A DNA stretch of 64,000 nt from Candidatus Doudnabacteria bacterium RIFCSPHIGHO2_01_FULL_46_14 (GTDB lineage Bacteria > Patescibacteriota > Doudnabacteria > UBA920 > 2-01-FULL-46-14). Below, one piece after another: positions 5,600-57,562 of this stretch. The translations under genes were made by a program, and so were the position numbers. The notes under the pieces are model-generated. The model was not told where the DNA came from, made no database searches, and saw nothing but the letters and a program-made list of their open reading frames with translations. How positions within the stretch are numbered: position 1 is the first letter of the stretch; the number at the start of each line of letters is the position of its first letter. Where the stretch lies: contig MFEK01000016.1 of assembly GCA_001779925.1 (NCBI GenBank), positions 78,504 through 142,503 of the forward strand. Reading direction: 5' to 3'.

Positions 5600-5650
5600 T
5601 GCCCCCAGAGGGAATCGAACCCCTATCTTGTCCTTAGGACGGATCTGCTC
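5600..5650 (-). pseudogene. Partial tRNA-Arg copy: the 3' half only, with no matching 5' acceptor strand
   Basis: About 50 nt nearly identical to the 3' half of the adjacent tRNA-Arg, including the anticodon arm and T-arm. The 5' portion is unrelated sequence. Confidence 0.55.
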
Positions 5651-5671: not shown

Positions 5672-5743
5672 TGTCCCTGGAGGGAATCGAACCCCCATCT
5701 TATCCTTAGGACGGATCTGCTCTATCCATTGAGCTACAGAGAC
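5672..5743 (-). tRNA. tRNA-Arg(CCU)
   Basis: Acceptor GTCTCTG/CAGGGAC, anticodon loop GTCCTAA, T-loop TTCGATT. CCA is not encoded. Confidence 0.75.
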
Positions 5744-14967: not shown

Positions 14968-15468
14968 CTACTTCTTCACGAGTCCCCACTCTTGCTTGGC
15001 GATTTCTTTATCGCCGGCAAGGAGTTTCACTATATCGGCTCGCGACACAATGCCGACGAGCTTGCCGTTATCAAGCACGGGCACCGGGTTGGCTTTTTTG
15101 TGCAAAAATGTTTCAGCGAGAGTCTCGAGCGTGTCGTCCGGTTTTGCAGTCATAACCTCTTCAGTCATAACCTCTTCAACCTTGGTCGCAGTGAGAACCT
15201 CAAGCTGTTTTTCAATCTCATCGCCGTTGGCGGGGTTGTCCAGATAAACGAAGCTCCCCAGTATGCCTAAAATTTTTGGGATATGGACAGGTTCTTCCAT
15301 TTTGACCAGGTCCTGCTCAGTCACAATTCCTATGAGTTGTTCGGCCTCATCCAAAACCGGCAAACCGGAAAGACCGTTAAGATACATAAGCCTTGCTGCT
15401 TCCTTGATCGAATCATAAGGCGTACAGAAGATTACGTTTTTGGTCATTATGTCTTTGACTGTTGTCAT
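14968..15468 (-). CDS. CBS-domain pair protein
   Basis: Two tandem CBS motifs. Confidence 0.8.
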   Translation of the reverse strand: MTTVKDIMTKNVIFCTPYDSIKEAARLMYLNGLSGLPVLDEAEQLIGIVTEQDLVKMEEPVHIPKILGILGSFVYLDNPANGDEIEKQLEVLTATKVEEVMTEEVMTAKPDDTLETLAETFLHKKANPVPVLDNGKLVGIVSRADIVKLLAGDKEIAKQEWGLVKK

Positions 15469-15539
15469 AGTTTTACGAATTACGAATTTTTACGAACTTA
15501 CGAATTCGTACATTCGTATCCATTCGTTATTCGTAAAGC
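15469..15539. repeat. TACGAAT-heptamer intercistronic repeat element, palindromic copy 1
   Basis: gttttacgaattacgaatttttacgaacttacgaattcgtacattcgtatccattcgttattcgtaaagc. Fills the entire gap between the nrnA stop and the CBS gene's start. Confidence 0.6.
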
Positions 15540-16514
15540 TTAAGTTATCTTCCACCCATTCTCTGTTTTCTCTATTGTCCCTTTAAATTTAAATCCTGCC
15601 GCCAGTTTGTGTCCTCCCCCGCCGAAGCTGCGTGCAATCTCGGAAACATCCACGCCTTTGTGAGGTTCGCTGCGTAGACTTCCCTTAATCTCAGAACCGC
15701 GCTGCTTTAAAAGCATGGAAAATTTCGCTTCGGGAATGGTGTTGAGGAGCTCTACTACCCCCTCGAGATCCTCCTCGGAAGCCTGAGCTTTTTCCAAATC
15801 CTCAGCTGTAACTACAGTATATACGACTCTGGCTTTCTCATCAAAACGGGCTTGGTCGAGTGCCATGGCCCAGACCTTCAGTTTCGGCAAATCCTTTTGC
15901 GAAGAGGTAAAACGCGAAACAAGATCGAGCCTTGCGCCTTTGCGCAAAAGCTCGGCAGCGATTTCCAGAGTCGCGGCCGTGACATTAGCGTGCCGGAAAC
16001 CGCCAGTATCCGTAAAGATCCCGGTAAGCAGACAAAGCGCCATGGCCTTGTCTATTTCCACCCCCCATTCTCCGAGCATCACGTACACGAGCTCGCAGTT
16101 GGCAGCCCGGGTTTCATCCCAGACATTTACTGTTCCAAACATTTGCGTATCGTGATGATGATCAATGTTCAAAATGGATTTTTGCCAATTGTTCAGCTCG
16201 GCAAATCCGGTGCGATCGAGCTTGCCGCAGCCCATGGTAAGGATCGCGTCGTAATTAGCAAAATCTACCGGCAGTTTGTCATACACATCGCTGTGACCCG
16301 GCAGAAAAAGTAAATTTTCCGGTACCCCGCCGTACGCCATACTCCAAACCTCTTTGCCCATCCCCTCCAAAGCTCGCGCAAGCGCAAGCACGCTTCCGAG
16401 GTCGTCCCCGTCAGTGTATTCATGGGAAATCAAAATAAAACGCTTGTTAGCGTTTACCAAATCATAGGCTTTCGTAAACTCGGTTTTTAATTCACTCTTA
16501 ATCTCAATCGCCAT
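15540..16514 (-). CDS. nrnA: DHH/DHHA1 phosphoesterase (NrnA-like oligoribonuclease / pAp phosphatase)
   Basis: DHH motifs SHEYTDGDD and NIDHHHD. DHHA1 motif GGGH. Confidence 0.8.
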   Translation of the reverse strand: MAIEIKSELKTEFTKAYDLVNANKRFILISHEYTDGDDLGSVLALARALEGMGKEVWSMAYGGVPENLLFLPGHSDVYDKLPVDFANYDAILTMGCGKLDRTGFAELNNWQKSILNIDHHHDTQMFGTVNVWDETRAANCELVYVMLGEWGVEIDKAMALCLLTGIFTDTGGFRHANVTAATLEIAAELLRKGARLDLVSRFTSSQKDLPKLKVWAMALDQARFDEKARVVYTVVTAEDLEKAQASEEDLEGVVELLNTIPEAKFSMLLKQRGSEIKGSLRSEPHKGVDVSEIARSFGGGGHKLAAGFKFKGTIEKTENGWKIT

Positions 16515-16839: not shown

Positions 16840-16913
16840 TCCCTACTAAATTACGAATAGTTACCAATTACGAATCCGGATTCGTAATTGGTATTGATTA
16901 GTAATTTGTAGGG
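16840..16913. repeat. TACGAAT-element copy 2, a long imperfect palindrome between infB and rbfA
   Basis: Contains ccaattacgaatccggattcgtaattgg and outer arms ccctac/gtaggg. Confidence 0.55.
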
Positions 16914-19754: not shown

Positions 19755-20507
19755 TCAACTCTTGATAACTTTTTCGTAAGGCACGCCTGCCATCCACGCC
19801 ATATCAAACAAAATCCGCAGGGACTGGCTCACCTCCCGGCTTTCGATCTGCACTGCAAATACTGCCGGCTTGAAAGAGAAAAAAGCCACATGATTTCCGT
19901 AAATCGCGCTGTCAGTTAAAAATTCCGGAAAACTCTTTGGTGCAAAACGGCTTTGATAATATTCATGCTGTTTTATCCAGCTGACGTACTCGATGTCGGC
20001 TGGCGTCTGGGTAAGAATTTCTCTGACTTTTGTTTGTTTGGTAATCACCCGCTCCCGCAAAAGCTTGGGCATGTCCGGGAACATGGCGAACACATCTCGG
20101 ATCGTGGAAAAAAAATCAATCGCGGGCGAGGAAAATATTTTATCATAGACCTGCCTCAAACCTTGCTTGCCTTCATAAAGCTGCACTTGGGGTTTTTCTT
20201 TTTTCGCATTGTAAACCGCGAGCAGATTGGGCATGAATCTTTTGAGGAGCTCTTCCTTGCGATTAATCTCTGTCAAAATCAGCTCCGGTGATTCGGCAGT
20301 GTATAGAGTTTTCCTGGCACGAGGCACCAGACTCACTAATCCTCGCGTTTGCAAATCATCTAAGACCAAATAAGTTGTGGGTCGTTTGGTTCCGGCTTTT
20401 TTGGCAATGGATTCTACCGAAGCCACGCCCAGCTCCAAAGCGGCCAGGTAAACGCTGGCTTCTTTGGCATGTAGCCCCAGTTTTTCTAAAGTGTCTGTCA
20501 GTTCCAT
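19755..20507 (-). CDS. TrmB-family HTH transcriptional regulator (paralogue 3)
   Basis: LGLHAKEASVYLAALELGVASVESIAKKAGTKRPTTYLVLDDL. Confidence 0.7.
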   Translation of the reverse strand: MELTDTLEKLGLHAKEASVYLAALELGVASVESIAKKAGTKRPTTYLVLDDLQTRGLVSLVPRARKTLYTAESPELILTEINRKEELLKRFMPNLLAVYNAKKEKPQVQLYEGKQGLRQVYDKIFSSPAIDFFSTIRDVFAMFPDMPKLLRERVITKQTKVREILTQTPADIEYVSWIKQHEYYQSRFAPKSFPEFLTDSAIYGNHVAFFSFKPAVFAVQIESREVSQSLRILFDMAWMAGVPYEKVIKS

Positions 20508-20520
20508 ATAATCGCATTGT

Positions 20521-20541
20521 TCCCCTCCTCGTGAGGAGGGG
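20521..20541. repeat. GC-rich palindrome cccctcctcgtgaggagggg of the CCCCTCC/GGAGGGG family
   Basis: Perfect hairpin. It is followed by a second hairpin, gaagcaatctcgggtgggattgcttc. Confidence 0.6.
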
Positions 20542-20816
20542 TTAGGGGAGGTTATTTGTCATTGCGAGGGTATTCCCGAAGCAATCTCGGGTGGGATTGC
20601 TTCGCCGACTACGGCTCGCAAAGACAGCGTAGCGAAGAATTTATATTCTGTCAATTTTTCTGACAAATTGCAAATGAACAACAAATTTTGCCTTAAATAA
20701 GGCATTATTTTCACTAATTTCTATCTAAAACTCTAGACAAATGTGTCAAAATTTGCTAATATACATCGTTACGCTGGAAATGTCTCTAGCCTAACATCAA
20801 AGCCAAAAGGAGGGTT

Positions 20817-20976
20817 TATGCCAAAGGTCTTAAAAATTGAAGGAAATGTAGCTGACAACGGAACGCTTCTAACCGGGGTAATAATGGTTCACTATGACCC
20901 GGAAGACTTGCAAAAATTCATGGATGATTGGCGCAAGGAAATGGAGGAGCGGAAGAAAAAAAGGAAAGAGCCTTAG
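20817..20976 (+). CDS. Small hypothetical protein (53 aa)
   Basis: Strong SD aaaggaggg 5 nt upstream of ATG 20817. The ORF-track start at 20743 has no RBS. Confidence 0.4.
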
Positions 20977-21130
20977 CACTCCCTCCCCGTCTGGCCAAAA
21001 TAGACGGGAATTTTTTCCAGACAATATTCAACGCAATGAATGTTGTTTGAAAGGAATTATAACAATATCAAGGGGGGTCTTATCTTCCAGTAAGTCCTGA
21101 CCGAAAGGCAGGCATGGATTGGAGGAAATC

Positions 21131-21472
21131 ATGAAAACCATTAACGAGAAAGTGGAATATCTTCGCACCGTCCTGATCGCTGTCTTCGGCCAAGAGGGGG
21201 ATAAAAGTATGTGCTTGTCTTGTCCCCCGGGTTGCTTGCAATCTTACCGGCCATGCCCCGATGTGTCAGACCTTCGAGCGATTCTTGCTCGAATGGAAGC
21301 TGACCGCGTGGCGGGAGAAGCGTTTAAGCGGAGATACCGAACTCCGATCTATGAGGCGCTCCTCAAGATCGGATTCAATCCGCAGGCTGCAGAGAGACTC
21401 ACCGACAGGACTAGCCGCGACTGTATACGCGGTGATGAGTTCCTGGAATTGGTGAGGAGCAATCTCTCGTAG
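21131..21472 (+). CDS. Hypothetical protein (113 aa), Cys-containing
   Basis: SD ggagg 5 nt upstream of ATG 21131. Confidence 0.5.
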   Translation: MKTINEKVEYLRTVLIAVFGQEGDKSMCLSCPPGCLQSYRPCPDVSDLRAILARMEADRVAGEAFKRRYRTPIYEALLKIGFNPQAAERLTDRTSRDCIRGDEFLELVRSNLS

Positions 21473-21591
21473 CCCAAACCCTTTCTCCGCCCGTGATTTG
21501 GCTTGCGACAATTCACGGGAATTTTTTCCAGATAAGTATCGCATGGGGCGATGGTTGTCTGAAAAGAATTTGAAAACCTTTTGGAGGAATT

Positions 21592-22194
21592 ATGCAACGG
21601 ACTTGGAAGAATTTCTTTGGGTTAGCAACTGCAATGATAGTGGTGATGATTATCGCCAGCAAATGCGATGCGCACGGACAAGGACTAGCAGAGATTCGCG
21701 GGACGAATACGAAATACCGTTACATTGATGCCGCCTACAGTTTCAAGAACAATATCATGCTTGATGGATTCTATCTTGGCGTGCCTGGCGAAAATCAAAT
21801 CCATGCCGGTGCCGGATACAATATCAAGCCCAGCGAACATTTTACAATCACCCCGGCTGTCTACATGACACGTTCAAAGGAAGGTGAAACTGGAATCAAA
21901 GCCGCTTTGCTCGTGAATGGAAGCCTGGGCCGCTGGAAAACTAATGCTTTTCTTGGGAAACACAAATCCCTAAAAAGTTTACCATCTTACACTTTTTTGG
22001 ACGCTCTCGAACTGGCACGCAGCGTGAAACAATTCGAGATCGGTGTCTCAACAGGATTCGTTCACATGGAGCGCAACTGGAACCCACTCGTCGGCCCGGT
22101 AGTAAAATTCAACGACAAATCAGGCGCATGGAGCTTATCCGTACGCAGCGGCAGTGAAACGGAAATCCGGCTCACGCGAACTTTCAACTTCTGA
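21592..22194 (+). CDS. Secreted protein, hypothetical
   Basis: N-terminal signal peptide. SD ttggagg. Ends ...RLTRTFNF with a C-terminal Phe, which is beta-barrel-like. Confidence 0.5.
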   Translation: MQRTWKNFFGLATAMIVVMIIASKCDAHGQGLAEIRGTNTKYRYIDAAYSFKNNIMLDGFYLGVPGENQIHAGAGYNIKPSEHFTITPAVYMTRSKEGETGIKAALLVNGSLGRWKTNAFLGKHKSLKSLPSYTFLDALELARSVKQFEIGVSTGFVHMERNWNPLVGPVVKFNDKSGAWSLSVRSGSETEIRLTRTFNF

Positions 22195-22206
22195 CAAGGA
22201 GAGTTT

Positions 22207-22926
22207 ATGGACAAATGGACACGACTTGACGACCGAATGCTGGAACGGCGATTCTTGACTGAAAAAAATCCCGCCCTCGTCAACATCGAACGGCAAAGTT
22301 TATCCGCGGCCGAGGAGCAAGGAACATGGATAGTCCGACAATATTGTTCCCTGGTCCGGATGATCATCGAATACCTGGGACTAGGGATGAGCCTCATCCC
22401 GATACATAGGGTGCAAACAGAACTTGCTCGAAATATCGGCGAAGAGCAAGGCTCGCGCACGGGTGGCGTGCCGCACCGGGAACTGCTAGCCAAGATCCTG
22501 CGCGATGAGCTGAACATGGAATGCTTTTCGCCCTGGTCACAGGCCACCCTGCGTTTTCACCTGGCTCTGCTGGGACAGTTTCAAACACAAGCTAAAAACC
22601 CGGTACATATCGCGGGAATGATCTACGCCCTCGAGGCCAGCGCGTGTCCGGAGCTTCTCGTGGTAGCCAGAATCATCAACAGTTTTGCCGGCTATCAGGT
22701 GGTCAATCTCGACACGGTTCAAGATTTCAATCGAAGTCGTGAGATCAAAACTCTGGAGGACTTCATCGCCGTCCATGTCATTGATTTCGAGCTCGGCCAC
22801 AAGCTCGGGCTCTGCCAAACCCTCGACAGATTTGCCTCCACTGACTGGGAGGCGTTCGAGCTGGGATTTGAATTCGTGCTGGACACCATGGCCGAGTGGT
22901 GGGAGGCGCTGAGCAATGGGGGATGA
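22207..22926 (+). CDS. Hypothetical cytoplasmic protein
   Basis: SD acaaggagag. No motif confidently recognised. Confidence 0.5.
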   Translation: MDKWTRLDDRMLERRFLTEKNPALVNIERQSLSAAEEQGTWIVRQYCSLVRMIIEYLGLGMSLIPIHRVQTELARNIGEEQGSRTGGVPHRELLAKILRDELNMECFSPWSQATLRFHLALLGQFQTQAKNPVHIAGMIYALEASACPELLVVARIINSFAGYQVVNLDTVQDFNRSREIKTLEDFIAVHVIDFELGHKLGLCQTLDRFASTDWEAFELGFEFVLDTMAEWWEALSNGG

Positions 22927-22942
22927 ATTTCGTACCAATTCA

Positions 22943-22987
22943 AAACCCGGGCGAGAGCAATCTCATCGCCCGGTTTTTTATTTTGCT
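22943..22987 (+). terminator. Terminator module D, copy 1
   Basis: cccgggcgagagcaatctcatcgcccggttttttatttt. Nearly identical to 24676-24717. Confidence 0.65.
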
Positions 22988-23002
22988 AATTATCCACAGA
23001 GA

Positions 23003-23095
23003 CTCACTTACTTCACAGCCGTGAATGAAGTGAGTACTTGTTAAATTATGCTGAAGTACCCCACAGACTTCACGATCGTGAAGTCTGTGGGGTAC
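23003..23095. repeat. Two tandem palindromes of the TTCACGATCGTGAA-core family. The second is a perfect 40 bp palindrome.
   Basis: 23003-23034 is ctcacttacttcacagccgtgaatgaagtgag. 23056-23095 is gtaccccacagacttcacgatcgtgaagtctgtggggtac. Confidence 0.65.
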
Positions 23096-23096
23096 T

Positions 23097-23885
23097 TTAT
23101 TTTTCTTCTCCGGTGGACTCCCAAATAAAATAAAAAAGCGAGCGCATGGTCGCGGCGATCTCTTTTGAACGGATGATGAGTCCGATTGGCTCGCTATCTT
23201 TGCGCCATAAAGCAAAAGATGCATTGTCGCCATAAATGTAGCAGTCGAGTGGCAACGGAAATTTCTTTGAATCCAAAGTTTTTACTCGGCGCAAAAAGGC
23301 AGGATCAGTTTTTAAATTCATCTCCGCTGATCTTGCGACGCCGCTCAGCAAAATATCAATTGCAATTCCGTATTTAATTCTTCTGGGAATATAATAATTA
23401 CTCGCATACTCATCAATCGCAGGATGGATGTTTTCTAAACCTACAAAATTGAGCGTCGGCTTGCGCTGATGGAGATTGTCCAAATAGATTTTCTTTACGC
23501 CTTCTACGCCTTCATAAAAAACAATTTTCGGTTTCACAGAAGCAGTTGCTAGTAACATCCGCAGCTCTGGCAGACGTTTCTGTATTAGCTCCAGTTCAGC
23601 TGCTTTTTTCTCTACATAGCTTTCCGGATCTTCTGCCACTAGAAAGCGTCTTTTGCCAATCATGGTTTCTGAGAGAAGGCCTTTGCTGAATAAATTTGGT
23701 AGGAGTTTATAGAGTGTTGGCCTTTTTACCCCTGATTTATCTGCCAAGTGTTTAGGCAATGACCTGCCCAATTCCAAGGCTGATAAATAAATGGCTGATT
23801 CGGCCTTGGAAAGTCCTAGATTTTCTAATGTTTCTTCAATATGCATATTAAAGTGTTGCAGTTTATGACACTTTATATCATGCAT
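23097..23885 (-). CDS. TrmB-family HTH transcriptional regulator (paralogue 4)
   Basis: LGLSKAESAIYLSALELGRSLPKHLADKSGVKRPTLYKLL. Confidence 0.7.
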   Translation of the reverse strand: MHDIKCHKLQHFNMHIEETLENLGLSKAESAIYLSALELGRSLPKHLADKSGVKRPTLYKLLPNLFSKGLLSETMIGKRRFLVAEDPESYVEKKAAELELIQKRLPELRMLLATASVKPKIVFYEGVEGVKKIYLDNLHQRKPTLNFVGLENIHPAIDEYASNYYIPRRIKYGIAIDILLSGVARSAEMNLKTDPAFLRRVKTLDSKKFPLPLDCYIYGDNASFALWRKDSEPIGLIIRSKEIAATMRSLFYFIWESTGEEK

Positions 23886-23961
23886 TATTTACTTTATCTC
23901 GTCAACAATATATGATCCAAAGTCACAATAGACACAAATTGTGACAGAAATTGGAGGAACG

Positions 23962-24120
23962 ATGACAGTTGAAGAAGGAATGTCCCGTGCCATTGAGATT
24001 GCAAAACAGCTTGCTGTGCAAATTGGTTGGAAACGACAAGGTGAAACCAGTGCATATTACGCACTAACTGTTGCAATTCTCGCCGCAGCAATCTTCAGCC
24101 GCATGGGAGGAGAAGAATGA
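23962..24120 (+). CDS. Small hypothetical protein (52 aa), translationally coupled (ATGA overlap) to the next gene
   Basis: SD ttggagg before ATG 23962. Hydrophobic C-terminus. Confidence 0.4.
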   Translation: MTVEEGMSRAIEIAKQLAVQIGWKRQGETSAYYALTVAILAAAIFSRMGGEE

Positions 24121-24668
24121 TCGAACAATTTCGAGTTACAAAACATAACGGGGAGGACCCTTACTATCCCGTCCGCTTCACAGCAGTGCTTCCCGAAAAA
24201 AAGCCTCTCAAGGCCCTGGTTAAGGAAGTCGTGAAAGCCATCTGTAATTGGAAAGCTCCCTGGGGTAAGGTCTTCGAGATTTACTGCGACAATCCCGCGT
24301 ACATTCCTTACAACTATGTTAAAACTGATGAAAAACGCGGAGTGGCGGCGTTTGTCCTTCTTCAAGAAAGACCTCTCATTGCAATCCTTCAAGGACCTGC
24401 AAGAGCATGGGATGAAGCTATCTACGCAATACGTCTGGAAGGTGACGTTGTCCGAGGCTGGCGCATTGAACACGGCTCTGGTTACCACGGACCTGATGGC
24501 GATGCATTCGGCAACCACTACCGATTCGTTCTGACAGAACTCAAAGCCGGAGTGCTGCGCTACACTGCAATGACCAAAACAGATCGGAGGAAAAACGATC
24601 AAGGTGTATGGACTTCGAAAATTCAGGATACTCCAAAAGAAATAGACCTACTCGCGGAGATACCCTAA
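24117..24668 (+). CDS. Hypothetical protein (183 aa)
   Basis: SD gggaggag. No recognised motif. Confidence 0.5.
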   Translation: MIEQFRVTKHNGEDPYYPVRFTAVLPEKKPLKALVKEVVKAICNWKAPWGKVFEIYCDNPAYIPYNYVKTDEKRGVAAFVLLQERPLIAILQGPARAWDEAIYAIRLEGDVVRGWRIEHGSGYHGPDGDAFGNHYRFVLTELKAGVLRYTAMTKTDRRKNDQGVWTSKIQDTPKEIDLLAEIP

Positions 24669-24675
24669 AAATTAA

Positions 24676-24717
24676 ACCGAGGCGAGAGCAATCTCATCGC
24701 CCGGTTTTTTATTTGCC
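24676..24717 (+). terminator. Terminator module D, copy 2
   Basis: aaccgaggcgagagcaatctcatcgcccggttttttatttgcc. Confidence 0.65.
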
Positions 24718-24767
24718 TAAATGAACCACCCCCGCAGCAAGCTGACGGGGTATCATAAGCCTACGAT

Positions 24768-24806
24768 TCACCCCTCCCTAACCCTCCCCATCAAGGGGAG
24801 GGAAAA
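24768..24806. repeat. Family-A GC-rich hairpin element, copy A1
   Basis: tcacccctccctaaccctccccatcaaggggagggaaa. It is 38/39 nt identical to 58651-58690 and close to 47147-47186. Confidence 0.7.
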
Positions 24807-24858
24807 AGCAGGGAACCGCGGCAAGCCGCGGGGAATTAGACCCGGGGAGATTAAATAG

Positions 24859-24897
24859 TGACCCATAGGATTCACGATCGTGAAGTCTGTGAGTCAT
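24859..24897. repeat. TTCACGATCGTGAA-core palindrome with chimeric arms
   Basis: tgacccataggattcacgatcgtgaagtctgtgagtca. The left arm resembles the 29235 copy and the right arm the 23056 copy. Confidence 0.6.
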
Positions 24898-24945
24898 TTT
24901 ACGCTATGACCTCCCCCTAGCCCCTCCTCAATGAGGAGGGGAATT

Positions 24946-25809
24946 TCAAAACTGCCGGGATTTGCCGACGATCATTTTGATTTTTTGTTTCGCGACCTTT
25001 ATTATTGCGGGGGCTTTGGTGTAGACTTGCCCCTCAATAGAGAGCGGTAGTTTCCGCGGGCCAAGGACTTCGATCTGTTTGGCGTGCATGATGGTAGCGC
25101 CGGGCACATTGTCGAGACAGCCGGTAGCCAGCTCACGGCGGTAGCGGATAATTTGCCCGCTTGCAAGTTTGTTCAGTAATAAAATATCGAGAAGTTTGTC
25201 AGTGGGATCCCCGAGTTTGACCTTGCACCCGGCGTTATTGCGGCAATTGATAATCTGCGCGCCCAACACCTCTGAGGAAACCCGAAACGAATCATCAAGC
25301 TCAAGCTGTACCTCGAAAGGTGCTAGCCTCATGAATGTGCGCACGCTTGATAGGCCCATAAACCCGGGCTCGATCTGGGAAAACTGATTTTCTCCAAGCT
25401 CCACCTTGGATAAAAAATAATGCTCATTAATCTCACCCAAATCCAGGCTCGCTACCAAGCGACCTGCCAAAGTCTTTACTGAAAGCTCGATGTCAGGCGT
25501 GATCCCGAAAATCTGCCCTAACCTGGAATCTGAATCAAGCGAAATAAAGCCCACAGTAATGTCAGCGTGATGGCGCACCAAGGCATTGATAGCGCGGTTG
25601 AGCGTACTATCCGAGCCTACCACAATGATAGTTTTGGCCTCAAGGCCAATGGCTTGATCCACCAAAAGCTCCACGGTTCGGATCGAGGTCACCCGATAAG
25701 TCTCCCCTTCTATATGGTGTTCCGCGATCAGGTTCAGGAGGCGTCCTTGGATGCGCTCAAAATATTTGACTTCTTTGTCCTTTCCCGGATCAAAGATATA
25801 AAAATACAT
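24946..25809 (-). CDS. Diacylglycerol/lipid kinase catalytic-domain protein (YegS/BmrU-like)
   Basis: IIVVGSDSTLNRAINAL...GFISLDSD matches the DAGK_cat pattern. Confidence 0.65.
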   Translation of the reverse strand: MYFYIFDPGKDKEVKYFERIQGRLLNLIAEHHIEGETYRVTSIRTVELLVDQAIGLEAKTIIVVGSDSTLNRAINALVRHHADITVGFISLDSDSRLGQIFGITPDIELSVKTLAGRLVASLDLGEINEHYFLSKVELGENQFSQIEPGFMGLSSVRTFMRLAPFEVQLELDDSFRVSSEVLGAQIINCRNNAGCKVKLGDPTDKLLDILLLNKLASGQIIRYRRELATGCLDNVPGATIMHAKQIEVLGPRKLPLSIEGQVYTKAPAIIKVAKQKIKMIVGKSRQF

Positions 25810-25895
25810 GGCTTTACGAATTACTAATCTTTACGAATATACGAATCCGAATTCACATTCGTAAATTCGTACCAATTCGTTATTCGTAAAACTTT
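25810..25895. repeat. TACGAAT-element copy 3, palindromic
   Basis: gttttacgaataacgaattggtacgaatttacgaatg... read in the minus orientation. Fills the gap between the bactofilin stop and the kinase start. Confidence 0.6.
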
Positions 25896-26300: not shown

Positions 26301-26360
26301 TATTAATAATTTAAAATTAAAAAGTCAAAATGGAAAATTACGGTGTAAAATTGTTAATTG

Positions 26361-26858
26361 TCATTCTACGCTTTGATCTTTCAATTTTGCATTATTAATA
26401 GCTAGTTTTTCCTCCTCAGTCAGATGATACTCGGATTTGCCGTTTGCAATGGATTTGCCATATATCCTCGTTCCTTCCCTGGCATGGAGTGAGCTTATTA
26501 CTATACCATTGTCATTCCCATCCAGTAAAGCGAGGGTAAAACTCATGTTGCCGCCTGCTTCCGCAAACGGATTGAATCGCACGAGCCCGGTTTTTTGAAC
26601 ATTAAATCGATTACTCTCCACCAACTCCTCGAGAATCTTGCCCAGCTCTTTGAGATTTTTGTTGTGAGTGGCCAGGGTTTTTTTATGCTTAAGCACGATC
26701 TCCTCGATTGACGGCACTTCTTCACCGGCTACCAGCTGGCTGTGCTGCATGCCGAAATCACGCAAACGCAAAAATAGCCAAATCAATAACAACACATTGA
26801 TTATTGATACTATTCCGACAGCCAAAATGAAGTATGGATTATTTAAAAAATCTATCAT
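26361..26858 (-). CDS. Membrane-anchored protein, possibly DUF4446-like
   Basis: N-terminal TM helix. C-terminal VRFNPFAEAGGNMSFTLALLDGNDNGIV is reminiscent of DUF4446. Confidence 0.4.
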   Translation of the reverse strand: MIDFLNNPYFILAVGIVSIINVLLLIWLFLRLRDFGMQHSQLVAGEEVPSIEEIVLKHKKTLATHNKNLKELGKILEELVESNRFNVQKTGLVRFNPFAEAGGNMSFTLALLDGNDNGIVISSLHAREGTRIYGKSIANGKSEYHLTEEEKLAINNAKLKDQSVE

Positions 26859-26893
26859 ATAATAACCGAGTCCTTAACCTTAATTTCCCTAAT

Positions 26894-27073
26894 TATACTC
26901 ACATGTCAGATAATACCCAAATAGATCCGGATTTTCAGAAAGATTACGACCACATCAGAGCTGATGTCAAAAAGGTCGTGATAAATAACATCCTGTTCGT
27001 GGGCTTGCTCGTGGCCATATATTTCGCCAATCAGCGATTCGGGTTTCTCAGCAGACTGGAGAATTTTTTTTAA
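26894..27073 (+). CDS. Small membrane protein, hypothetical
   Basis: ATG 26894. One TM helix. No clear SD. Confidence 0.3.
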   Translation, partial: YTHMSDNTQIDPDFQKDYDHIRADVKKVVINNILFVGLLVAIYFANQRFGFLSRLENFF

Positions 27074-27120
27074 TATGAAGCGCGGCATTTTTACCCCATA
27101 CTAAATTTTTGTGAATGCTT

Positions 27121-27194
27121 GGGGGTATAGTAAAGTGGTATTACGCAGCATTCGCATTGCTGAGGCTCGGGTTCGATTCCCGATACCTCCACCA
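27121..27194 (+). tRNA. tRNA-Ala(CGC)
   Basis: Acceptor GGGGGTA with G3:U70. D-stem GTAA/TTAC, anticodon stem CAGCA/TGCTG, loop TTCGCAT, CCA encoded. Confidence 0.8.
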
Positions 27195-27264
27195 CAAAAA
27201 TTTTAGTACCGGATCGCATTATAGAAATATCTACTATAAATCACTACCAAAAAAACGGCTGATA

Positions 27265-28128
27265 TTATCGCCGCTTTTTTCGTTTCTCCCAAGAAGTTTT
27301 TATCTCATTATGCCAACTGCGGTAGAGACTGGGATGAATAGGAAAACCGCCCGAGGCTGTGGCATTAAACTCGGCCACCAGACGGAGGACCTGCGTCCTG
27401 GTTACCACGCGGTCAGCAAGCGTCATCTCCATATCCGATTCAATCTCTACGATACCGTCAATGACTCTGTTGAGTTTGAATATCCAGTCCAAAAAATCAA
27501 AGATCAGAAGAGCGGGTAAAAGCAAAAAAACCAGCGACACAATCGCTGACGCTTCAATCTCATCATGACGTATAAATGACATGACGCTGACGACGATTCC
27601 GGCACTGATAATGGTGACCAAACCTAACCACATCAGACCGCGCAGTTTCATATACAATCTCTGCGCCCAAAAAGCAGATTCTGCTGTCAGCTCCAAAAGC
27701 CGCCTGGGCCCAGGAGAGGCTTTGGTATCCCAGTAATCTACCGGACGATTGCTATGCTTGAATTCATTTATCACTTTGGTTCCCGCTCGGGCTTTCCAAA
27801 TTGCAAACTGACGGCGATTCACATCCCAACCAAGGCCTTCGCTGAGTACAGATTGCCTCCTCATGGTTTCGGCCATATCAAAAGTGTCCTCGGAAACGAA
27901 ACGCAAATAGTACCCTAAAGTAAAACCGCTAAGCGCAAAAATTACCAAACCAAGCTTGATGGATGGATTCAGATGACCTTCGCTGAGCAGTACCATCATT
28001 GCCCCCATCACCATCTGAATCCCCACGCCCCACTGCCATTCACGTGCCGCTCGATTAAAAAGCAGCCCAGCCAAGTGGTTGAGCTCTTCGCCATGCTTGA
28101 TATTCTCAATAATATCCGGCTTCAACAT
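27265..28128 (-). CDS. Four-TM membrane protein, hypothetical
   Basis: Two TM hairpins, at residues ~30-75 and ~176-227, separated by a ~100 aa soluble loop and followed by a charged tail. Confidence 0.5.
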   Translation of the reverse strand: MLKPDIIENIKHGEELNHLAGLLFNRAAREWQWGVGIQMVMGAMMVLLSEGHLNPSIKLGLVIFALSGFTLGYYLRFVSEDTFDMAETMRRQSVLSEGLGWDVNRRQFAIWKARAGTKVINEFKHSNRPVDYWDTKASPGPRRLLELTAESAFWAQRLYMKLRGLMWLGLVTIISAGIVVSVMSFIRHDEIEASAIVSLVFLLLPALLIFDFLDWIFKLNRVIDGIVEIESDMEMTLADRVVTRTQVLRLVAEFNATASGGFPIHPSLYRSWHNEIKTSWEKRKKRR

Positions 28129-28306
28129 AGTGATTTCATCATAACATAAATTGAAAATGCCTTCGAAAGCGCCTGTTCCCTACTCGACGAAGGAATCTTC
28201 GGGGTGATTCCTCTCGGGTCCGCTTAAATAATTTTGTACAATTAGAAATGCTCCGGTCCATACTTGGGATCGGAGCATTTTCTTTTCACGTCAGCTCGAT
28301 AGCAAG

Positions 28307-29116
28307 CTATTGAGAGAACGCGAAATTCACAGTAATGGTGGTCACAACCGGCACCGGCTCGCCATTGAGCAGAGTTGGTTCGTAACACCACTGTTTGACT
28401 GCGTCGAGCGCAGCTTGGACGAGCAGTGGATGTCCTGTCAGCACTTTCAGTTTTTCAATCTTGCCGGCAGTGCTGATCTCAGCCTCCAAAACTACCACTC
28501 CTTGAACGCGCGCTTGTCTGGCGAGAGCTGGATATACAGGCGTAACTTTACATTTCAAATTAGCAGCCTGGACATTGCCCCCAACACGGACGCGCTCAGG
28601 AGTTTTTGGCGCTGGTGGGGGTGGAGGAGGCGGTAGAGGCGCGGCTTCTGGCGTGTCGCCGCTCGGGAATGGAAATCTTGCCCGATCAGAACCACCACCT
28701 GGAATCCCTCCCGGAACTCCGCCTGTCACACCCGTATTATCCTTGGGAGGTTCCGGAACAAAAAGATCAGGTCCTGGAATGTCCCTTGGAATAGACGGCG
28801 GTGCGGTAAATCTATCGTCTACTTTCGTCTCTGTTTCTCTGGGTTTCTCCTTTTCTTTCGTAAACACTTCAACATCAGGTGTTTTCTTTTTTTCCGGCGG
28901 CGGAGCAAACAGCTTATCAGCGAGCACGACTGCCGGAGTGTTGGTGATGAAAAGCGGCACTAGGATTAGCAATGCTACGACCAGCACTTGCGCTGCTGTC
29001 GAAAGAATCATGGCCAAACCAAACCGCTTGCGGTTTTTACCGTTGAGTTGTGAATTTTCGAACATTTTCCCTCCTACGAGGTGGGAAAGTTGCAGGTGCC
29101 CGTTTGCACAGTACAC
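28307..29116 (-). CDS. TonB C-terminal-domain protein (TM anchor, Pro-rich spacer, then a TonB_C-like domain)
   Basis: N-terminal TM helix, PPPPPPAP linker, then a C-terminal VTPVYPALARQARVQGVVVLEAEISTAGKIEKLKVLTGHPLLVQAALDAVKQWCYEP. Confidence 0.6.
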   Translation of the reverse strand: MYCANGHLQLSHLVGGKMFENSQLNGKNRKRFGLAMILSTAAQVLVVALLILVPLFITNTPAVVLADKLFAPPPEKKKTPDVEVFTKEKEKPRETETKVDDRFTAPPSIPRDIPGPDLFVPEPPKDNTGVTGGVPGGIPGGGSDRARFPFPSGDTPEAAPLPPPPPPPAPKTPERVRVGGNVQAANLKCKVTPVYPALARQARVQGVVVLEAEISTAGKIEKLKVLTGHPLLVQAALDAVKQWCYEPTLLNGEPVPVVTTITVNFAFSQ

Positions 29117-29234
29117 GTCTCGAGAGCTCTCGGCTCCCCGGCAATTTCAGCCAAAGTAGGACCGACTATGCACGTCTCCTGCAGTTACACTTAATATCAT
29201 TGTAGACCTGTCATTTAAAACGTCAAGAAAAAAT

Positions 29235-29270
29235 AACCCATAGGCTTCACGATCGTGAAGCCTATGGGTT
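29235..29270. repeat. TTCACGATCGTGAA-core perfect 36 bp palindrome
   Basis: aacccataggcttcacgatcgtgaagcctatgggtt. Confidence 0.65.
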
Positions 29271-29349
29271 ATCGGATTTGAATACAAAAAACACAAGCCG
29301 CTGGACATCCATTTCTGGACGCCAGCGGCTAAGTTATCCATGCGAGCCC

Positions 29350-29577
29350 CTACCTCTTATTCTCGGTTCTCGCGAGAAGTAAACTGCGCAGTCGCCTCTC
29401 TTCCTTGGCCGGCTTTCGCAAAAAGAAAGCCTCAGCCTCGCGAATGGCTTGCACTTCTCGCGCACAACTCACGCACTGTCGCACATGTTGAGCCATGCGT
29501 GTGTGCTGATGGCCAAATGTCACCGCCTTCGCAAAAAAAACCTGCAGCCTTCTGAAGTCCCTGCAATTTTCAATCAT
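29350..29577 (-). CDS. Small protein with a zf-HC2-like (anti-sigma zinc-finger) motif
   Basis: C-x...H-x3-C-x2-C pattern (MIENCRDF...QHVRQCVSC). SD ggagga. Confidence 0.4.
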   Translation of the reverse strand: MIENCRDFRRLQVFFAKAVTFGHQHTRMAQHVRQCVSCAREVQAIREAEAFFLRKPAKEERRLRSLLLARTENKR

Positions 29578-29589
29578 TGGCTTCCTCCT

Positions 29590-30141
29590 TCAACGCACTG
29601 CGGCAAGTTGCTGACCGACGACCGGTGCAGGCTTTGATTTTTGCCACCGCGGAGGTGGCGTATCCGGACTCCAGAAACCCATGATTCCTCCAGATCGAGG
29701 CTGGTATTGTTGGTCAACTACACGCACTCCTTTTATAGTTTCCAATGGACGGCGAAAGTGCGAGCCAGAGATCACAACCGGTTTGGATGAAAGGGGGATT
29801 TCGAAAATGATCGTAACATTTCCTGAGCTTTGACTGTACCAATTTACAAAGCCCAGTTTCTTGAACTGTGAATCCTGACCGATCATCTTCCATTCTTCAG
29901 CGGTAAAAGTGATTTGTAAGCGCGGCGGATTGGTGTAGTTTTGCTCTCCGAATTCATAGAAGTATCGGTAACCGTCAGTAGTCCGTTCGGCTCTGGTGCT
30001 CATCACGATACGTTCGCCCTTCGGATCACAATCTCCAAACAAAGCGCCAAGCTGTATTCCCAGGATTGATTTTGGGATTGGTGCAAAAGCCAGCCCAACC
30101 GCCACGCAAATCAAAACTGCCAAGACAAGTTTTTGTATCAT
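29590..30141 (-). CDS. Secreted/lipoprotein-like hypothetical protein
   Basis: Signal peptide MIQKLVLAVLICVAVGLAFA. Confidence 0.5.
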   Translation of the reverse strand: MIQKLVLAVLICVAVGLAFAPIPKSILGIQLGALFGDCDPKGERIVMSTRAERTTDGYRYFYEFGEQNYTNPPRLQITFTAEEWKMIGQDSQFKKLGFVNWYSQSSGNVTIIFEIPLSSKPVVISGSHFRRPLETIKGVRVVDQQYQPRSGGIMGFWSPDTPPPRWQKSKPAPVVGQQLAAVR

Positions 30142-30180
30142 ATTCTCCTCCGAGAAGTTCGAAATTTGCCTAGACTAATT

Positions 30181-31982: not shown

Positions 31983-32657
31983 ATGGGGCTTCCAAAAAAC
32001 AAAGTTAAAATCGGGTGGTCGCCAGAATTTGCATATGCTATTGGGCTCCTAGTAACAGACGGTAGTTTATCAAAAGATGGCCGGCACATTAACTTTACCT
32101 CGAAAGACTTAGATCTCATAGAGACTTTCAAAAAATGCCTGCATTTGGAGAACAAGGTCGGAACAAAAACTGGTTATAGAAGAATAAAAAATATTTTTCA
32201 AATACAATTTGGTGATGTAAATTTCTATCGGTTTTTACTCTCAATAGGATTGATGCCGAATAAAACCAAAATCCTTAAGAAAATAGCCATCCCCGAGGAA
32301 TACTTCTTTGATTTTTTGAGAGGACATTTTGATGGGGATGGATCATTTAATTCCTACTGGGACCCACGATGGAAATCCAGTTTTATGTTTTATATGAACT
32401 TTGTTTCCGCCAGTGAAAATCATATAAAGTGGCTTAGAAATCGCATTTTTGAAACACTGCAAATACGCGGCCATGTCAGCAAAGCTCGACTCAGCAGTTG
32501 CTATCAGTTAAGGTACGCAAAAAAAGAATCATTAAAATTGCTGGATAAGCTCTACTATAGAAAAGTTGTCTGTTTGCATCGAAAATACTTGAAAATTCGT
32601 GATGCTTTATTTATAATTAGCAAGCTTCTAAAAAAGAGCAATGCCCGGGTGGTGTAA
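31983..32657 (+). CDS. Single-chain (double-motif) LAGLIDADG homing endonuclease
   Basis: Two LAGLIDADG-like motifs, LLVTDGSLSKDG and LRGHFDGDGSF. TATAAT sits 6 nt before the ATG. The 3' end overlaps the first ~15 nt of tRNA-Leu. Confidence 0.7.
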   Translation: MGLPKNKVKIGWSPEFAYAIGLLVTDGSLSKDGRHINFTSKDLDLIETFKKCLHLENKVGTKTGYRRIKNIFQIQFGDVNFYRFLLSIGLMPNKTKILKKIAIPEEYFFDFLRGHFDGDGSFNSYWDPRWKSSFMFYMNFVSASENHIKWLRNRIFETLQIRGHVSKARLSSCYQLRYAKKESLKLLDKLYYRKVVCLHRKYLKIRDALFIISKLLKKSNARVV

Positions 32658-32728
32658 TGGTAAACACGCTGGCTTGAGGTGCCAGTGGGGGAAACCCTGT
32701 GGAGGTTCAAGTCCTCTCCCGGGCACCA
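32643..32728 (+). tRNA. tRNA-Leu(GAG)
   Basis: Acceptor GCCCGGG/CCCGGGC, anticodon loop TTGAGGT, long variable arm, CCA encoded. Length 86 nt. Confidence 0.8.
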
Positions 32729-32730
32729 AA

Positions 32731-32805
32731 GCGCACTTAACTCAGTGGTAGAGTACTTCCTTTACACGGAAGGAGTCGGGGGTTCGAATCCCTCAGTGCG
32801 CACCA
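32731..32805 (+). tRNA. tRNA-Val(UAC)
   Basis: Acceptor GCGCACT/AGTGCGC, anticodon stem CTTCC/GGAAG, loop TTTACAC, CCA encoded. Confidence 0.8.
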
Positions 32806-42403: not shown

Positions 42404-43027
42404 ATGGTAATATCCTGGTTTGGACTGTCGAGTTTCAAGATTTCCTCAGGCCCGCTAACGCTCATCACTGACCCTTTTTCCAAAAGCGCCGGGCCAACGC
42501 CCCCGCGGGGGCAGACTGACATAGTCATTATTTCTAACCCTTCTTCTGATCTCTACAATAACCGCGAGGCAGTAGGGGATGAGAAGACTTTTGTGGTGGA
42601 CAGCCCCGGCGAATACGACATAAAGGGACTGTTTATCAGGGGTGTAGCGGCAGCCGGGGCTGCGATTTATGCCATACGCATGGAAGACATGCGCTTGGGG
42701 TTTTTAGGTTCGCTTAAACAAAAAGAGCTTTCTGACCAGCAGCTTGAAGACCTTGGTGATATTGATGTTTTGTTTGTACCGGTTGGCGGGAAAATCGTCT
42801 GCGATGCTGAGGAGGCCGTAACCATCGTCAATCAGATTGAACCGCGATTTGTGGTGCCCATGCACTATGCTCAGCCCGGCCTAAAAATCAGCCTCGATAA
42901 GGTTGACCAGTTTCTCAAAGAAATCGGAGGCGCTAAAGCCGCACCCCAGGAAAAACTAACTATCAAGAAATCCAACATCCTGGAAGGAGAAAATACCGAA
43001 GTCGTAATCTTGGAGCCTCTGAGGTAG
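42404..43027 (+). CDS. MBL-fold metal-dependent hydrolase (UPF0173-like)
   Basis: Start moved to ATG 42404, 6 nt after a TATAAT at 42393-98. DIDVLFVPVGG...VVPMHY. Confidence 0.55.
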   Translation: MVISWFGLSSFKISSGPLTLITDPFSKSAGPTPPRGQTDIVIISNPSSDLYNNREAVGDEKTFVVDSPGEYDIKGLFIRGVAAAGAAIYAIRMEDMRLGFLGSLKQKELSDQQLEDLGDIDVLFVPVGGKIVCDAEEAVTIVNQIEPRFVVPMHYAQPGLKISLDKVDQFLKEIGGAKAAPQEKLTIKKSNILEGENTEVVILEPLR

Positions 43028-43060
43028 TTTTACGAATAACGAATTAGTACGAATATACGA
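43028..43060. repeat. TACGAAT-element copy 4. The start codon of the next gene is embedded in it.
   Basis: gttttacgaataacgaattagtacgaatatacgaATGgag. Confidence 0.6.
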
Positions 43061-43276
43061 ATGGAGTTATTAAAGAGATTACAAGCTAGGCCCGAGAAAG
43101 AAAAAATCCGCATCCTGCGAATCTCTGTAGCTGTCACTGTCATTCTTATCCTCGTCATCTGGGTGCTGACGCTGAAATATAGAACCATTGAGCAAGGGGA
43201 TACCACGAAATTTCAAAAAATTTGGAATAATGTTAGAGAACTCAAGTCAAAATTTAAAAATCAAAATGGAAAATGA
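43061..43276 (+). CDS. Small membrane protein, hypothetical
   Basis: One TM helix. Confidence 0.4.
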   Translation: MELLKRLQARPEKEKIRILRISVAVTVILILVIWVLTLKYRTIEQGDTTKFQKIWNNVRELKSKFKNQNGK

Positions 43277-43343
43277 CAATTCAAAATTTTAAAATTTTAC
43301 ACTGTCATTTTGATTTTTGAACTTTACATTTTTCATTTAACCT
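43261..43343 (+). promoter_or_regulatory. AT-rich palindromic upstream module shared with the yebC upstream region (family E)
   Basis: tcaaaatggaaaatgacaattcaaaattttaaaattttacactgtcattttgatttttgaactttacattttt runs straight into the gyrA ATG with no SD. Confidence 0.5.
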
Positions 43344-47146: not shown

Positions 47147-47186
47147 CACCCCTCCCTCAGTCCCTCCCCATCAAGGGGAGGGAAGA
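47147..47186. repeat. Family-A GC-rich hairpin element, copy A2, just upstream of TrmB paralogue 6
   Basis: ccacccctccctcagtccctccccatcaaggggagggaag. Confidence 0.65.
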
Positions 47187-51274: not shown

Positions 51275-51406
51275 AATTCAAAATGCAAAAATCAAAATTC
51301 CAATCAAAATTTAAAATTACACAGAAGTGTCGTCCTGGGGTACTACGAAGGATCTCTGAATCAATACGAGATTCTTCGGCGAGTACGCCTCAGAATGACA
51401 ATTAGA

Positions 51407-51439
51407 TTTTCATTTTGATATTTAAACTTTACATTTTTT
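51407..51439 (+). promoter_or_regulatory. Family-E upstream module abutting the yebC ATG with no SD
   Basis: ttttcattttgatatttaaactttacatttttt matches gyrA upstream 43304-43343. Confidence 0.5.
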
Positions 51440-57533: not shown

Positions 57534-57562
57534 TTTTACGAATAACGAATAATTACGAATGT
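57534..57562. repeat. TACGAAT-element copy 5. The start codon of the next gene lies inside it.
   Basis: gttttacgaataacgaataattacgaATGtacgaattt. Confidence 0.6.

Follow-up and report, generated by a model that had tools for sequence, protein, structure and literature searches.

The region 20508-24945 of a 64,000-nt stretch of contig MFEK01000016.1 (hereafter the window), from the genome of a groundwater (Rifle) Candidatus Doudnabacteria in the candidate phyla radiation (CPR)/Patescibacteria, is an old, nested variable cargo slot and not one acquired, repeat-bounded element. It lies between a lipid kinase gene and the gene for a TrmB-family regulator (TrmB3), and in it small cargo genes (g1 to g4, g6, g7) and a further TrmB paralog (TrmB4) are interspersed with two pairs of duplicated terminator modules (D1/D2 and E1/E2), hairpins of a CCCTC type, and long palindromes (v1, v2 and the decayed H0; a related copy, v3, lies beyond the kinase). 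We consider it probable, though well short of assured, that open reading frames (ORFs) turn over in this slot between stable non-coding modules, that genes are gained by recombination within these modules, and that the palindromes are sites for a PaaX-like protein. The slot is of an ordinary hotspot kind, and current views are not overturned by it; what is unusual is that conserved modules are duplicated with each gain, and that the palindromes are tied to a minimal PaaX-like gene.

The genomes of CPR/Patescibacteria are very small, belong to uncultivated organisms and abound in ORFans, and to our knowledge almost nothing has been established about gene gain or gene regulation in them. Here, modules persist while genes turn over, the duplicated module makes each gain traceable, and a strain-level variant is available in public data. 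The candidate regulator-site pair, a minimal PaaX-like protein encoded beside polA and a long perfect palindrome, could be among the first inferable regulons of the phylum.

Gene content of the slot varies at a conserved site

The window is identical to part of a 130-kb scaffold from Rifle groundwater (ANAN16 scaffold_308). To compare the slot among relatives, the same locus was collected from other Doudnabacteria using homologs of the lipid kinase (67-92% identity). Individual loci are designated by L numbers, and the percentages given for the relatives L017-L024 are identities of their lipid kinase to that of the window. The backbone DUF4446-bactofilin-lipid kinase ... IF2-RbfA-DHH-CBS was kept in every relative locus compared, with the slot in the position DUF4446-bactofilin-lipid kinase/slot/TrmB3-(x)-IF2-RbfA-DHH-CBS. 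Between these syntenic flanks, the gene content from the kinase to TrmB3/IF2 was different in each Doudnabacteria lineage examined. The window has nine genes from the kinase to IF2, and a single membrane-protein gene occupies the slot in L023 (89%) and in L018/L017 (87%). The slot of L019 (81%) carries genes for a 211-aa secreted protein, a 104-aa protein, a TrmB3 ortholog (75% identical) and a 149-aa protein, and that of L020/L021 (70%) a methyltransferase gene, small ORFs and a TrmB3 ortholog (55% identical in L020). Since content differs between relatives while the backbone is kept, the slot content is accessory, showing the presence and absence among related genomes at a conserved site that characterizes genomic islands.

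The genes called in the window between 12.2 and 34.7 kb include no integrase, transposase or recombinase family, nor do the slot proteins, and no attC, phage or defence signature was found among the slot proteins or in the region. There is no tRNA at a slot border, the nearest being at 27121-27194, and Rfam gave no match within 20400-25000 even at E <= 1; the window-wide matches at the gathering threshold were tRNAs only. A reading of the slot as a defence system or prophage was dropped, as PADLOC and PHROGs gave its proteins only weak HTH-type matches (TrmB4).

The slot is thus close to the flexible genomic islets or hotspots of streamlined genomes, with which it shares conserved flanks around a cargo particular to each lineage (small ORFans and genes for secreted proteins or regulators), gains and losses that are nested in one another, and differences in presence even among near-identical strains. 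In contrast to those, integrase, tRNA and transposase are lacking here, the conserved elements are intergenic regulatory modules inside the slot, and gains are bracketed by a module duplicate of ∼50-120 nt.

Terminator modules stay at the site while adjoining genes change

Two cargo genes of the window, g4 and g7, end in the same terminator module, a point on which the preliminary description was right: 22943-22989 and 24674-24720 agree at 43 of 47 positions (91%), with a 34-nt exact core. Module D folds as a GC-rich, bulged 11-bp stem followed by a U6 (T6) tract. A second shared 3' module, E, follows g1 and g2 (20986-21054 resembles 21490-21566); this pair had been missed, as had H0 at 23001-23037. 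Both D and E have a GC-rich stem-loop and a U-tract just 3' of a stop codon, as expected of an intrinsic terminator, and E1 is listed by the terminator scan. From its sequence, D appears to be an intrinsic terminator of the usual kind, serving the cargo operon; to judge by its flanks, it could act in both directions and also stop read-through from the kinase. The resemblance to bidirectional Rho-independent terminators extends to the GC-rich stems and T-runs of D and E1/E2 after stop codons, and to the A-rich left flank of D. The modules differ from such terminators in having cores more conserved than neighboring coding sequence and in recurring as duplication junctions.

The degree of conservation can be gauged from the D2 hairpin and T-run, a 37-nt segment that is identical to module D of L029 and matches that of L019 at 36 of 37 positions, compared with DNA-level identities to L019 of 75% for the kinase and 71% for TrmB3. 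E1 is the ortholog of the sole module E in L019, with 80% identity overall and a near-identical core. By these alignments, conservation is higher in modules D and E than in the genes that flank them.

The modules are also conserved in position. The succession of cargo gene, D, ∼20 nt, palindrome, CCCTC hairpin and kinase is shared by L019, L028/L036 and L029 and corresponds to D2...v2...R5-kinase in the window, and v2 is the positional ortholog of the kinase-side palindrome in L019, L023, L028/L036 and L029. The gene that precedes D is g4 or g7 in the window, a g4 homolog in L028, the gene for the 211-aa secreted protein in L019 and a member of the 104-aa family in L029; in L023 the cargo is gone, yet the palindrome and half of D are retained. 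Because D lies next to a different gene in each genome, it belongs to the site and not to a cassette. At the other end of the slot, L019 has one E between its first cargo gene and its g3-like gene, directly before the latter, and the operator-like TGTCA-N7-TGACA of TrmB3, together with the leader as far as the first cargo ATG, is common to the window and L019. With D, the palindrome, the CCCTC hairpin, E and the TrmB3 leader at the same places in relatives, these elements therefore form a conserved backbone that is not carried by the cargo.

These positions bear directly on the reading put forward initially, in which the region is one horizontally acquired, repeat-bounded island of integron-like cassettes, each a gene with a mobile 3' module. 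Such an island would have accessory gene content, as found, and it would explain why two genes end in module D and two in module E, why inverted CCCTC hairpins stand at both borders, and why composition is mixed (41-54% GC inside the slot, with g4 at 54% and TrmB4 at 41%, vs. 46% for the whole window). However, L019, L028/L036 and L029 all have D, the palindrome and the CCCTC hairpin at this site, and L019 has E in its place as well, beside different genes; g3 and g4 have positional homologs in relatives; and the g7 homolog of L022 ends in a different, unrelated terminator. Neither an integrase or transposase in the 12.2-34.7 kb interval nor a border tRNA is there to support acquisition as a unit. 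The border hairpins come from a family scattered over the window (20522, 24783, 24921, 31062, 37645, 47163 and 58666 among others), so the two border copies are not specific boundaries, and the direct repeats D1/D2 and E1/E2 are internal to the slot. Because the modules keep their positions, the cassette-island model is for the most part refuted, and we now regard it as hardly tenable. What survives of the proposed modular layout is that D1/D2 and E1/E2 mark gene additions; the modules themselves are fixed at the site and are not parts of mobile cassettes. Similarly, an island should be present in some relatives and absent from others, which holds for the genes of the slot, lineage by lineage, but not for the backbone and the non-coding modules, which are shared.

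Integron cassettes are nevertheless the obvious comparison, since there, too, genes have a palindrome or stem-loop on their 3' side, and the units that vary in presence at such elements are of gene size. Unlike them, the slot has no IntI, no R/L-box architecture and no extrahelical bases, and D and E are simple terminator stems. It was stated correctly from the start that the palindromes lack attC features: v1 and v3 are perfect, with no bulges and no GTTRRRY. Cargo orientations are mixed and the genes possess promoters of their own (TrmB4 is encoded on the other strand, with a divergent promoter region), and it is the modules that are fixed and the genes that change.

Duplicated modules bracket gene gains

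A close relative of the window gives a view of the slot without part of its cargo. Contig L004, from another Rifle sample, is 97.8% identical over 3.2 kb, and in it the left part of D1 is fused to the right part of D2 and onward to 24851; it lacks 22990-24673. The segment absent from L004 comprises H0, v1, TrmB4, g6 and g7. The order g4-D-palindrome-kinase is also that of L028/L036, again without the segment bracketed by D1 and D2. Because the L004 junction has the L028/L036 arrangement, the 1.73-kb segment with v1, TrmB4, g6 and g7 would be a derived insertion, bracketed by D1 (with H0) on one side and D2 (with v2) on the other, an interpretation that is plausible though not proven. The offset of H0 from D1 equals the offset of the intact palindrome from D in L019, and H0 and v2 may be two decaying duplicates of one ancestral kinase-side site.

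Two other additions have the same form. E1 and E2 flank g2, which is absent in L019, and in L029 the CCCTC hairpin and kinase 3' end are present twice, with a HepT (DUF86-like)/MNT toxin-antitoxin pair (351-1162) in between. Thus, there are three independent gains (D1/D2, E1/E2 and L029 HepT/MNT), each with a 50-120-nt duplicate of the adjoining module and each without a recombinase. We propose that the TrmB3 divergent promoter and leader, module E, module D, one palindrome and the kinase-side CCCTC hairpin are the stable parts of the slot, between which ORFs are exchanged or added, each gain leaving a duplicate of the neighboring module on both sides. Recombination within the shared modules, either as Campbell-type integration of a circular fragment or as unequal crossover, might accomplish this with no dedicated recombinase. 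Two points count against this proposal: the recombination mechanism is read from junction structure alone, and L004 is short, so its D1/D2 join could be an assembly jump over the 34-nt identical core.

Additional observations were made on these junctions. The duplicated flanks in L029 are at 300-398 and 1268-1430, the insertion site is between the palindrome region and the lipid kinase, and the HepT ORF finishes in the copied last codons of the kinase (...KLIVSKTRQF). In L024 (kinase 92% identical), an antitoxin-like gene begins directly after the kinase. Many independent short public assemblies of this strain (L005, L006, L008, L009, L013, L014 and L016) break in module D, at 22979-22983 or 24710-24714, which is expected for a 34-nt exact repeat under k-mer assemblers, and it should be borne in mind that repeats such as D and the palindromes fragment CPR metagenome-assembled genomes (MAGs).

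The palindromes form a low-copy family with compensatory covariation

The perfect palindromes v1 and v3 are real, and they are longer than first described, at 44 bp instead of 40 and 40 bp instead of 36. Their common sequence, TTCACGATCGTGAA, has 3 occurrences in 64 kb compared with 0.03 expected, and 0 of 100 shuffles gave 3. With v1, v2, v3 and H0, the window contains 4 copies, all within 6.3 kb. Members of the family have the scaffold TTCAC-N4-GTGAA around a centre, CGRYCG, that is uniform per genome (GATC in the window and L029, GGCC in the reference MAG). The arm types are few (GGA, GAC or GGC before TTCAC) and occur in perfect and hybrid combinations, with hybrids making up about a quarter of the copies. 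Arms usually carry two GA(C/T)TC-like motifs ∼10 bp apart, a pattern from which v1 and v3 depart, and many members can be written as TGACTC-N26-GAGTCA with an inner GGATTC-N8-GAATCC.

A pattern scan of ∼186,000 species genomes returned matches only in one Doudnabacteria MAG, with 4 copies, using a strict pattern that would miss more diverged copies. Scanning metagenomes gave 9 loci, 8 of them with paired-arm members; L031 was rejected as a family member, as its flanks are unpaired and it looks like a chance match. When 23 copies were aligned gap-free, 87% of cells were paired and 11 of the 19 pairs had changed on both sides, compared with 26-43% paired in slid controls, and the pairing is nearly all Watson-Crick on both strands. 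In these scans the family had few copies per genome and was confined to Doudnabacteria; its compensatory covariation is strong. In the literature on Doudnabacteria, and on PaaX with Cas2-like domains, we found nothing about these elements.

The arms of v2 had been described as chimeric (24859-24897), and the idea that v2 is a recombinant of v1 and v3 was demoted: the same GGA/GTC hybrid arms recur at the orthologous L028/L036 site, and hybrids are common in the family. As for v3, it is located 6 nt upstream of the best sigma70-like promoter in 9.4 kb (TTGACG-16-TACAAT, 29226-29199, minus strand).

Covariation of this strength is what would be predicted if the palindromes were purely structural hairpins, with no dedicated protein, acting as 3'-end stabilisers, as accessory or bidirectional terminators, or as RNase III sites. 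Their placement agrees with such a role, most copies being 0-20 nt past stop codons and several lying between convergent genes (v1/H0, v2 and its orthologs, and L030), and terminator-like scores were obtained for v1 and v3, both of which have a T-run on one of their strands. Nevertheless, we think a purely structural role somewhat doubtful. Most copies have no flanking U-tract and come after a canonical terminator already (D, or 29295-29330), so the palindromes are not needed as terminators. The almost exclusively Watson-Crick pairing on both strands argues against RNA hairpins alone, as does the centre tetranucleotide, which shifts jointly across the copies of a genome (GATC vs. GGCC). Additional evidence on this question comes from the gene with which the palindromes are associated in relatives.

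Palindromes flank a PaaX-like gene in relatives

Three loci recovered by DNA pattern alone (L026, L034 and L035) have a gene of ∼188-189 aa between two palindromes. The protein, at ∼186-189 aa among homologs, matches PF20803 (PaaX_M, the central Cas2-like domain) with E-values of 1e-21 to 1e-24 and 76-85 bits (cutoff 24). Matches to the N-terminal PaaX/PadR winged helix-turn-helix (wHTH) are weak (E 0.04-0.07), as is the Cas2 match, there is no match to Y1_Tnp in this protein, and its length leaves no room for PaaX_C. Homologs are rare, with only 9 clusters in a set of 5.8 billion proteins. Palindromes were present at the gene in every relative locus with readable DNA, on both sides in L026, L034, L035, L037/L038 and L039 (where the downstream copy is cut by the contig end), and downstream only in L040, whose contig starts inside the gene.

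The two copies have characteristic positions. The upstream palindrome comes directly after TATAAT, TATCAT or TACAAT, 11-37 nt before the ATG (L026, L034, L035, L037 and L039; predicted promoters), and the L034 copy is placed between two divergent genes, away from any gene 3' end. The downstream palindrome abuts or overlaps the stop codon, and it precedes polA in L026 and L040; L035 and L037 share matching downstream sequence. Because of this shared polA-side context, the PaaX-like gene appears to be syntenic and not mobile, and the idea that palindrome-gene-palindrome is a mobile mini-transposon was rejected on the same observations.

Since two copies flank the PaaX-like gene in relatives, one after a -10-like box and one at the stop codon, they are likely to be its binding sites. 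We therefore favor the view that the palindromes are most likely the binding sites of a dimeric PaaX-like wHTH protein; v1, v2, v3 and H0 would in that case be additional sites recognized by this factor. The E. coli PaaX box is TGATTC(N27)GAATCA, according to a review (PMC9493321). The family sequence TGACTC-N26-GAGTCA resembles this box in span and half-site. Other parallels with the PaaX repressor and operator of the E. coli/Pseudomonas paa regulon are the central Cas2-like domain and weak PaaX/PadR-type wHTH match of the protein, the site beside the gene's own promoter in relatives, as for autoregulation, and inverted GA(C/T)TC half-sites spanning ∼38-40 bp. Differences from that system are the shorter protein, which is without the C-terminal ligand domain, the lack of paa genes nearby, and sites that are perfect full-length palindromes located mostly at gene 3' ends.

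If the palindromes were hairpins only, the copies around the PaaX-like gene would be merely its own leader and terminator. This explanation fits poorly with copies on both sides of every readable PaaX-like locus, including the divergent promoter of L034, which has no 3' end, and with an upstream copy that is always right behind a -10-like box. On the other hand, it is helped by the failure to find a PaaX-like gene for the genome of the window.

That failure is one of several observations that weigh against protein binding. Neither the PaaX-like gene nor polA was found in the window (by tblastn for the former), and among the 9 clusters from the 5.8-billion-protein set no close homolog is attributable to the window's MAG; the factor for this genome is unproven, and it may be missing or unassembled. 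The resemblance to the PaaX box amounts to 5-6 nt, a lead only, and v1 and v3 fit it loosely. The position of most copies just past stop codons or between convergent genes, described above, leaves no promoter there to regulate, and hence is more typical of 3' hairpins or repetitive extragenic palindromic (REP) elements than of operators. Finally, perfect symmetry over 36-44 bp exceeds the need of a simple HTH dimer.

The comparison with REP elements can be taken further. In a system analogous to REPs and their associated tyrosine transposases (RAYTs), on a different fold, a resident PaaX/Cas2-fold nuclease would copy or maintain, and perhaps cut, the 36-44-bp palindromes, and these, perhaps together with D and E, would be breakpoints at the edges of variable slots that promote gain and loss of cassettes. 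Here, as in REP/RAYT systems, a gene lies between two copies, other copies are extragenic at gene 3' ends or in convergent gaps, and variants are genome-specific. The Cas2-like domain keeps an FDIPE motif that, read by eye, resembles the catalytic Asp region of Cas2; the hybrid arms look as if arms had been swapped at the centre; and palindromes border two variable slots, kinase-TrmB3 and Wzy_C-DUF4446. Even so, we consider a system of this kind improbable. A handful of copies (4 in 64 kb, and 4 by strict pattern in one reference MAG) contrasts with the tens to hundreds of REPs. The kinase-side copy is positionally kept across lineages with 81-89% kinase identity, with little sign of mobility, and the PaaX-like gene appears to keep its place beside polA. 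There is no kinship of the protein with RAYTs, as it has no HUH/Y1 signature and carries a PaaX_M domain to which dimerisation is ascribed (PMC9493321), and the palindromes have no GTAG-type head. In addition, the insertion junctions are in D, in E and at the kinase 3' end, not in the palindromes.

Cargo proteins and features of the slot

Open reading frame calls and domain matches placed the six cargo ORFs, TrmB paralogs 3 and 4 and the lipid kinase where they had been described (Table 1), with TrmB domains in 19755-20507 and 23097-23885, both on the minus strand. Family and structure searches of the hypothetical proteins, which had been suggested as a check, were productive for g4, a DUF3865 protein (PF12981, 73.9 bits vs. 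a cutoff of 31.6; PDB 3b5o, CADD-like, E 5.8e-14). They yielded no family match for g1, g2, g3 or g6, and no solved structure that matches the g7 model. A g4 homolog, 49% identical, is the gene before D-palindrome-kinase in L028/L036.

Over its first 32 aa, g3 shares 66% identity with the 211-aa protein from L019, and the mature parts cannot be aligned. A secreted protein of this type, in which the signal peptide is kept but the mature part defies alignment, would suit an episymbiont whose surface functions are diversifying. TrmB4 and g7 are a divergent pair, and in L022 the g7 homolog retains both a TrmB4-like divergent partner and the promoter region. The g7 family has 13 representatives in 1.8 billion proteins, in which D71, E84, E100 and Y103 are invariant, and its structural model, confident at a predicted local distance difference test (pLDDT) of 88, indicates an alpha+beta fold. 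It is doubtful that g6 is a real gene, because it is absent in L022 and has a low GC content at third codon positions (GC3, 32%).

Table 1. Coordinates of the slot features and their flanks in the window.
Feature	Position	Strand	Remarks
TrmB3, conserved left flank	19755..20507	-	TrmB domain; orthologs upstream of IF2 in L019, L020
CCCTC hairpin	20522-20551	.	Between TrmB3 start and operator-like TGTCA-N7-TGACA; not at this place in L019
GTCATTGCGAG...CTCGCAAAGAC element	20558-20625	.	Between TrmB3 start and TGTCA-N7-TGACA; not at this place in L019
Divergent TrmB3/cargo promoter and 5' leader	20640..20817	.	Blocks shared with L019 as far as first cargo start codon
TGTCAATTTTTCTGACA	20649-20665		Inside TrmB3/cargo promoter region
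g1, 52 aa	20818..20976	+	No family match; L019 has a different first cargo gene here
Module E1	20986..21054	+	Terminator hairpin with T-run, then second hairpin
g2, 113 aa	21131..21472	+	No family match; 53.5% GC; between E1 and E2; without L019 counterpart
Module E2	21490..21566	+	Diverged duplicate of E, immediately 5' of g3
g3, 200 aa	21592..22194	+	Apparent N-terminal signal peptide, judged by eye from sequence
g4, DUF3865/CADD-like heme-oxygenase-fold	22207..22926	+	54% GC
Module D1	22943..22989	+	Putative intrinsic terminator: stem CCGGGCGAGAG/CUC-A-UCGCCCGG, then U6
H0, decayed palindrome-family member	23001..23037	.	16/22 paired; core TTCACAGCCGTGAA
v1, perfect 44-bp palindrome	23054..23097	.	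Touches TrmB4 stop codon
TrmB4, TrmB-family regulator	23097..23885	-	41% GC; 28% identical to TrmB3; divergent to g7
g6, 52-aa ORF	23962..24120	+	Overlaps g7 start; 32% GC3; absent in L022
g7, 183 aa	24117..24668	+	Rare family
Module D2	24674..24720	+	Putative terminator; A-rich left flank, T-run on right
R1	24727-24755		Hairpin segment between D2 and v2
R2	24769-24802		Hairpin segment between D2 and v2
R3	24811-24837		Hairpin segment between D2 and v2
v2, imperfect palindrome	24858..24897	.	16/22 arm positions paired
R5, CCCTC hairpin	24908..24941	.	Adjoins kinase stop codon; inverted copy of 20522-20551
YegS/DAGK-type lipid kinase, conserved right flank	24946..25809	-	
v3, perfect 40-bp palindrome	29233..29272	.	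Beyond canonical terminator 29295-29330 (minus strand)

CCCTC hairpins and the gap before the kinase

The gap at 24669-24945, next to the kinase, was said to be packed with at least five different repeat types. Six elements are present in it (D2, R1, R2, R3, v2 and R5), but repeats in the sense of having other copies in the window are only D2, R2, v2 and R5; R1 and R3 have none. Copies of R2 occur at 47162 and 58651. R5 is kept at the kinase side in L019, L028 and L029, and R1-R3 are not found at this place in the same three loci. Because R1-R3, and the elements at 20522-20625, are absent from the same places in L019, L028 or L029, they look recently inserted in this lineage.

A CCCTC-type element (CCCCTCCCTAACCCTCCCC...GGGGAGGG; window 24769-24802, 47162-47184 and 58651-58688) was also seen inside ORFs of relatives that remain unbroken, at L027:963-1000 and L040:1288-1347. 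These ORFs are a glycosyltransferase gene, reading ...PLPRGEGQEEGE..., and polA, so insertion of this intergenic repeat family also takes place within genes, with the reading frame kept.

A second variable slot and other repeats in the window

Comparison with L029, L017 and L019 indicated that 26859-30180, from the Wzy_C gene to DUF4446, is a second variable slot. In the window it contains a 183-aa gene, TonB_C, a 287-aa gene and tRNA-Ala. It is empty in L029, and it has a TPM phosphatase in L017 and a Cu-oxidase with an ArsR-type HTH gene in L019. A family palindrome is located at the Wzy_C-side edge of this slot, v3 in the window and a second copy in L029.

Two further kinds of intergenic repeat were noted. 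Long imperfect palindromes of a separate TACGAAT/ATTCGTA family are at 15467-15541, 16848-16907, 25808-25894, 43024-43063 and 57530-57568, with one copy filling the whole interval from the bactofilin stop codon to the start of the kinase. A/T-rich repeats with AAAAT/CAAAAT units and inverted partners are in three intergenic regions (26308-26392, 43244-43336 and 51268-51441).

Elsewhere in the window, 5600-5650 compared with 5672-5722 gave a 51-nt stretch that is 90% identical to part of tRNA-Arg(CCT), located 72 nt from that gene; no tRNA was called at this stretch by ARAGORN or Rfam, and it may represent either the remains of a tRNA or a gene that escaped detection. Finally, 31983-32657 (plus strand) is a 224-aa ORF with a faint LAGLIDADG_3 match, free-standing beside tRNA-Leu/tRNA-Val at 32643-32805.

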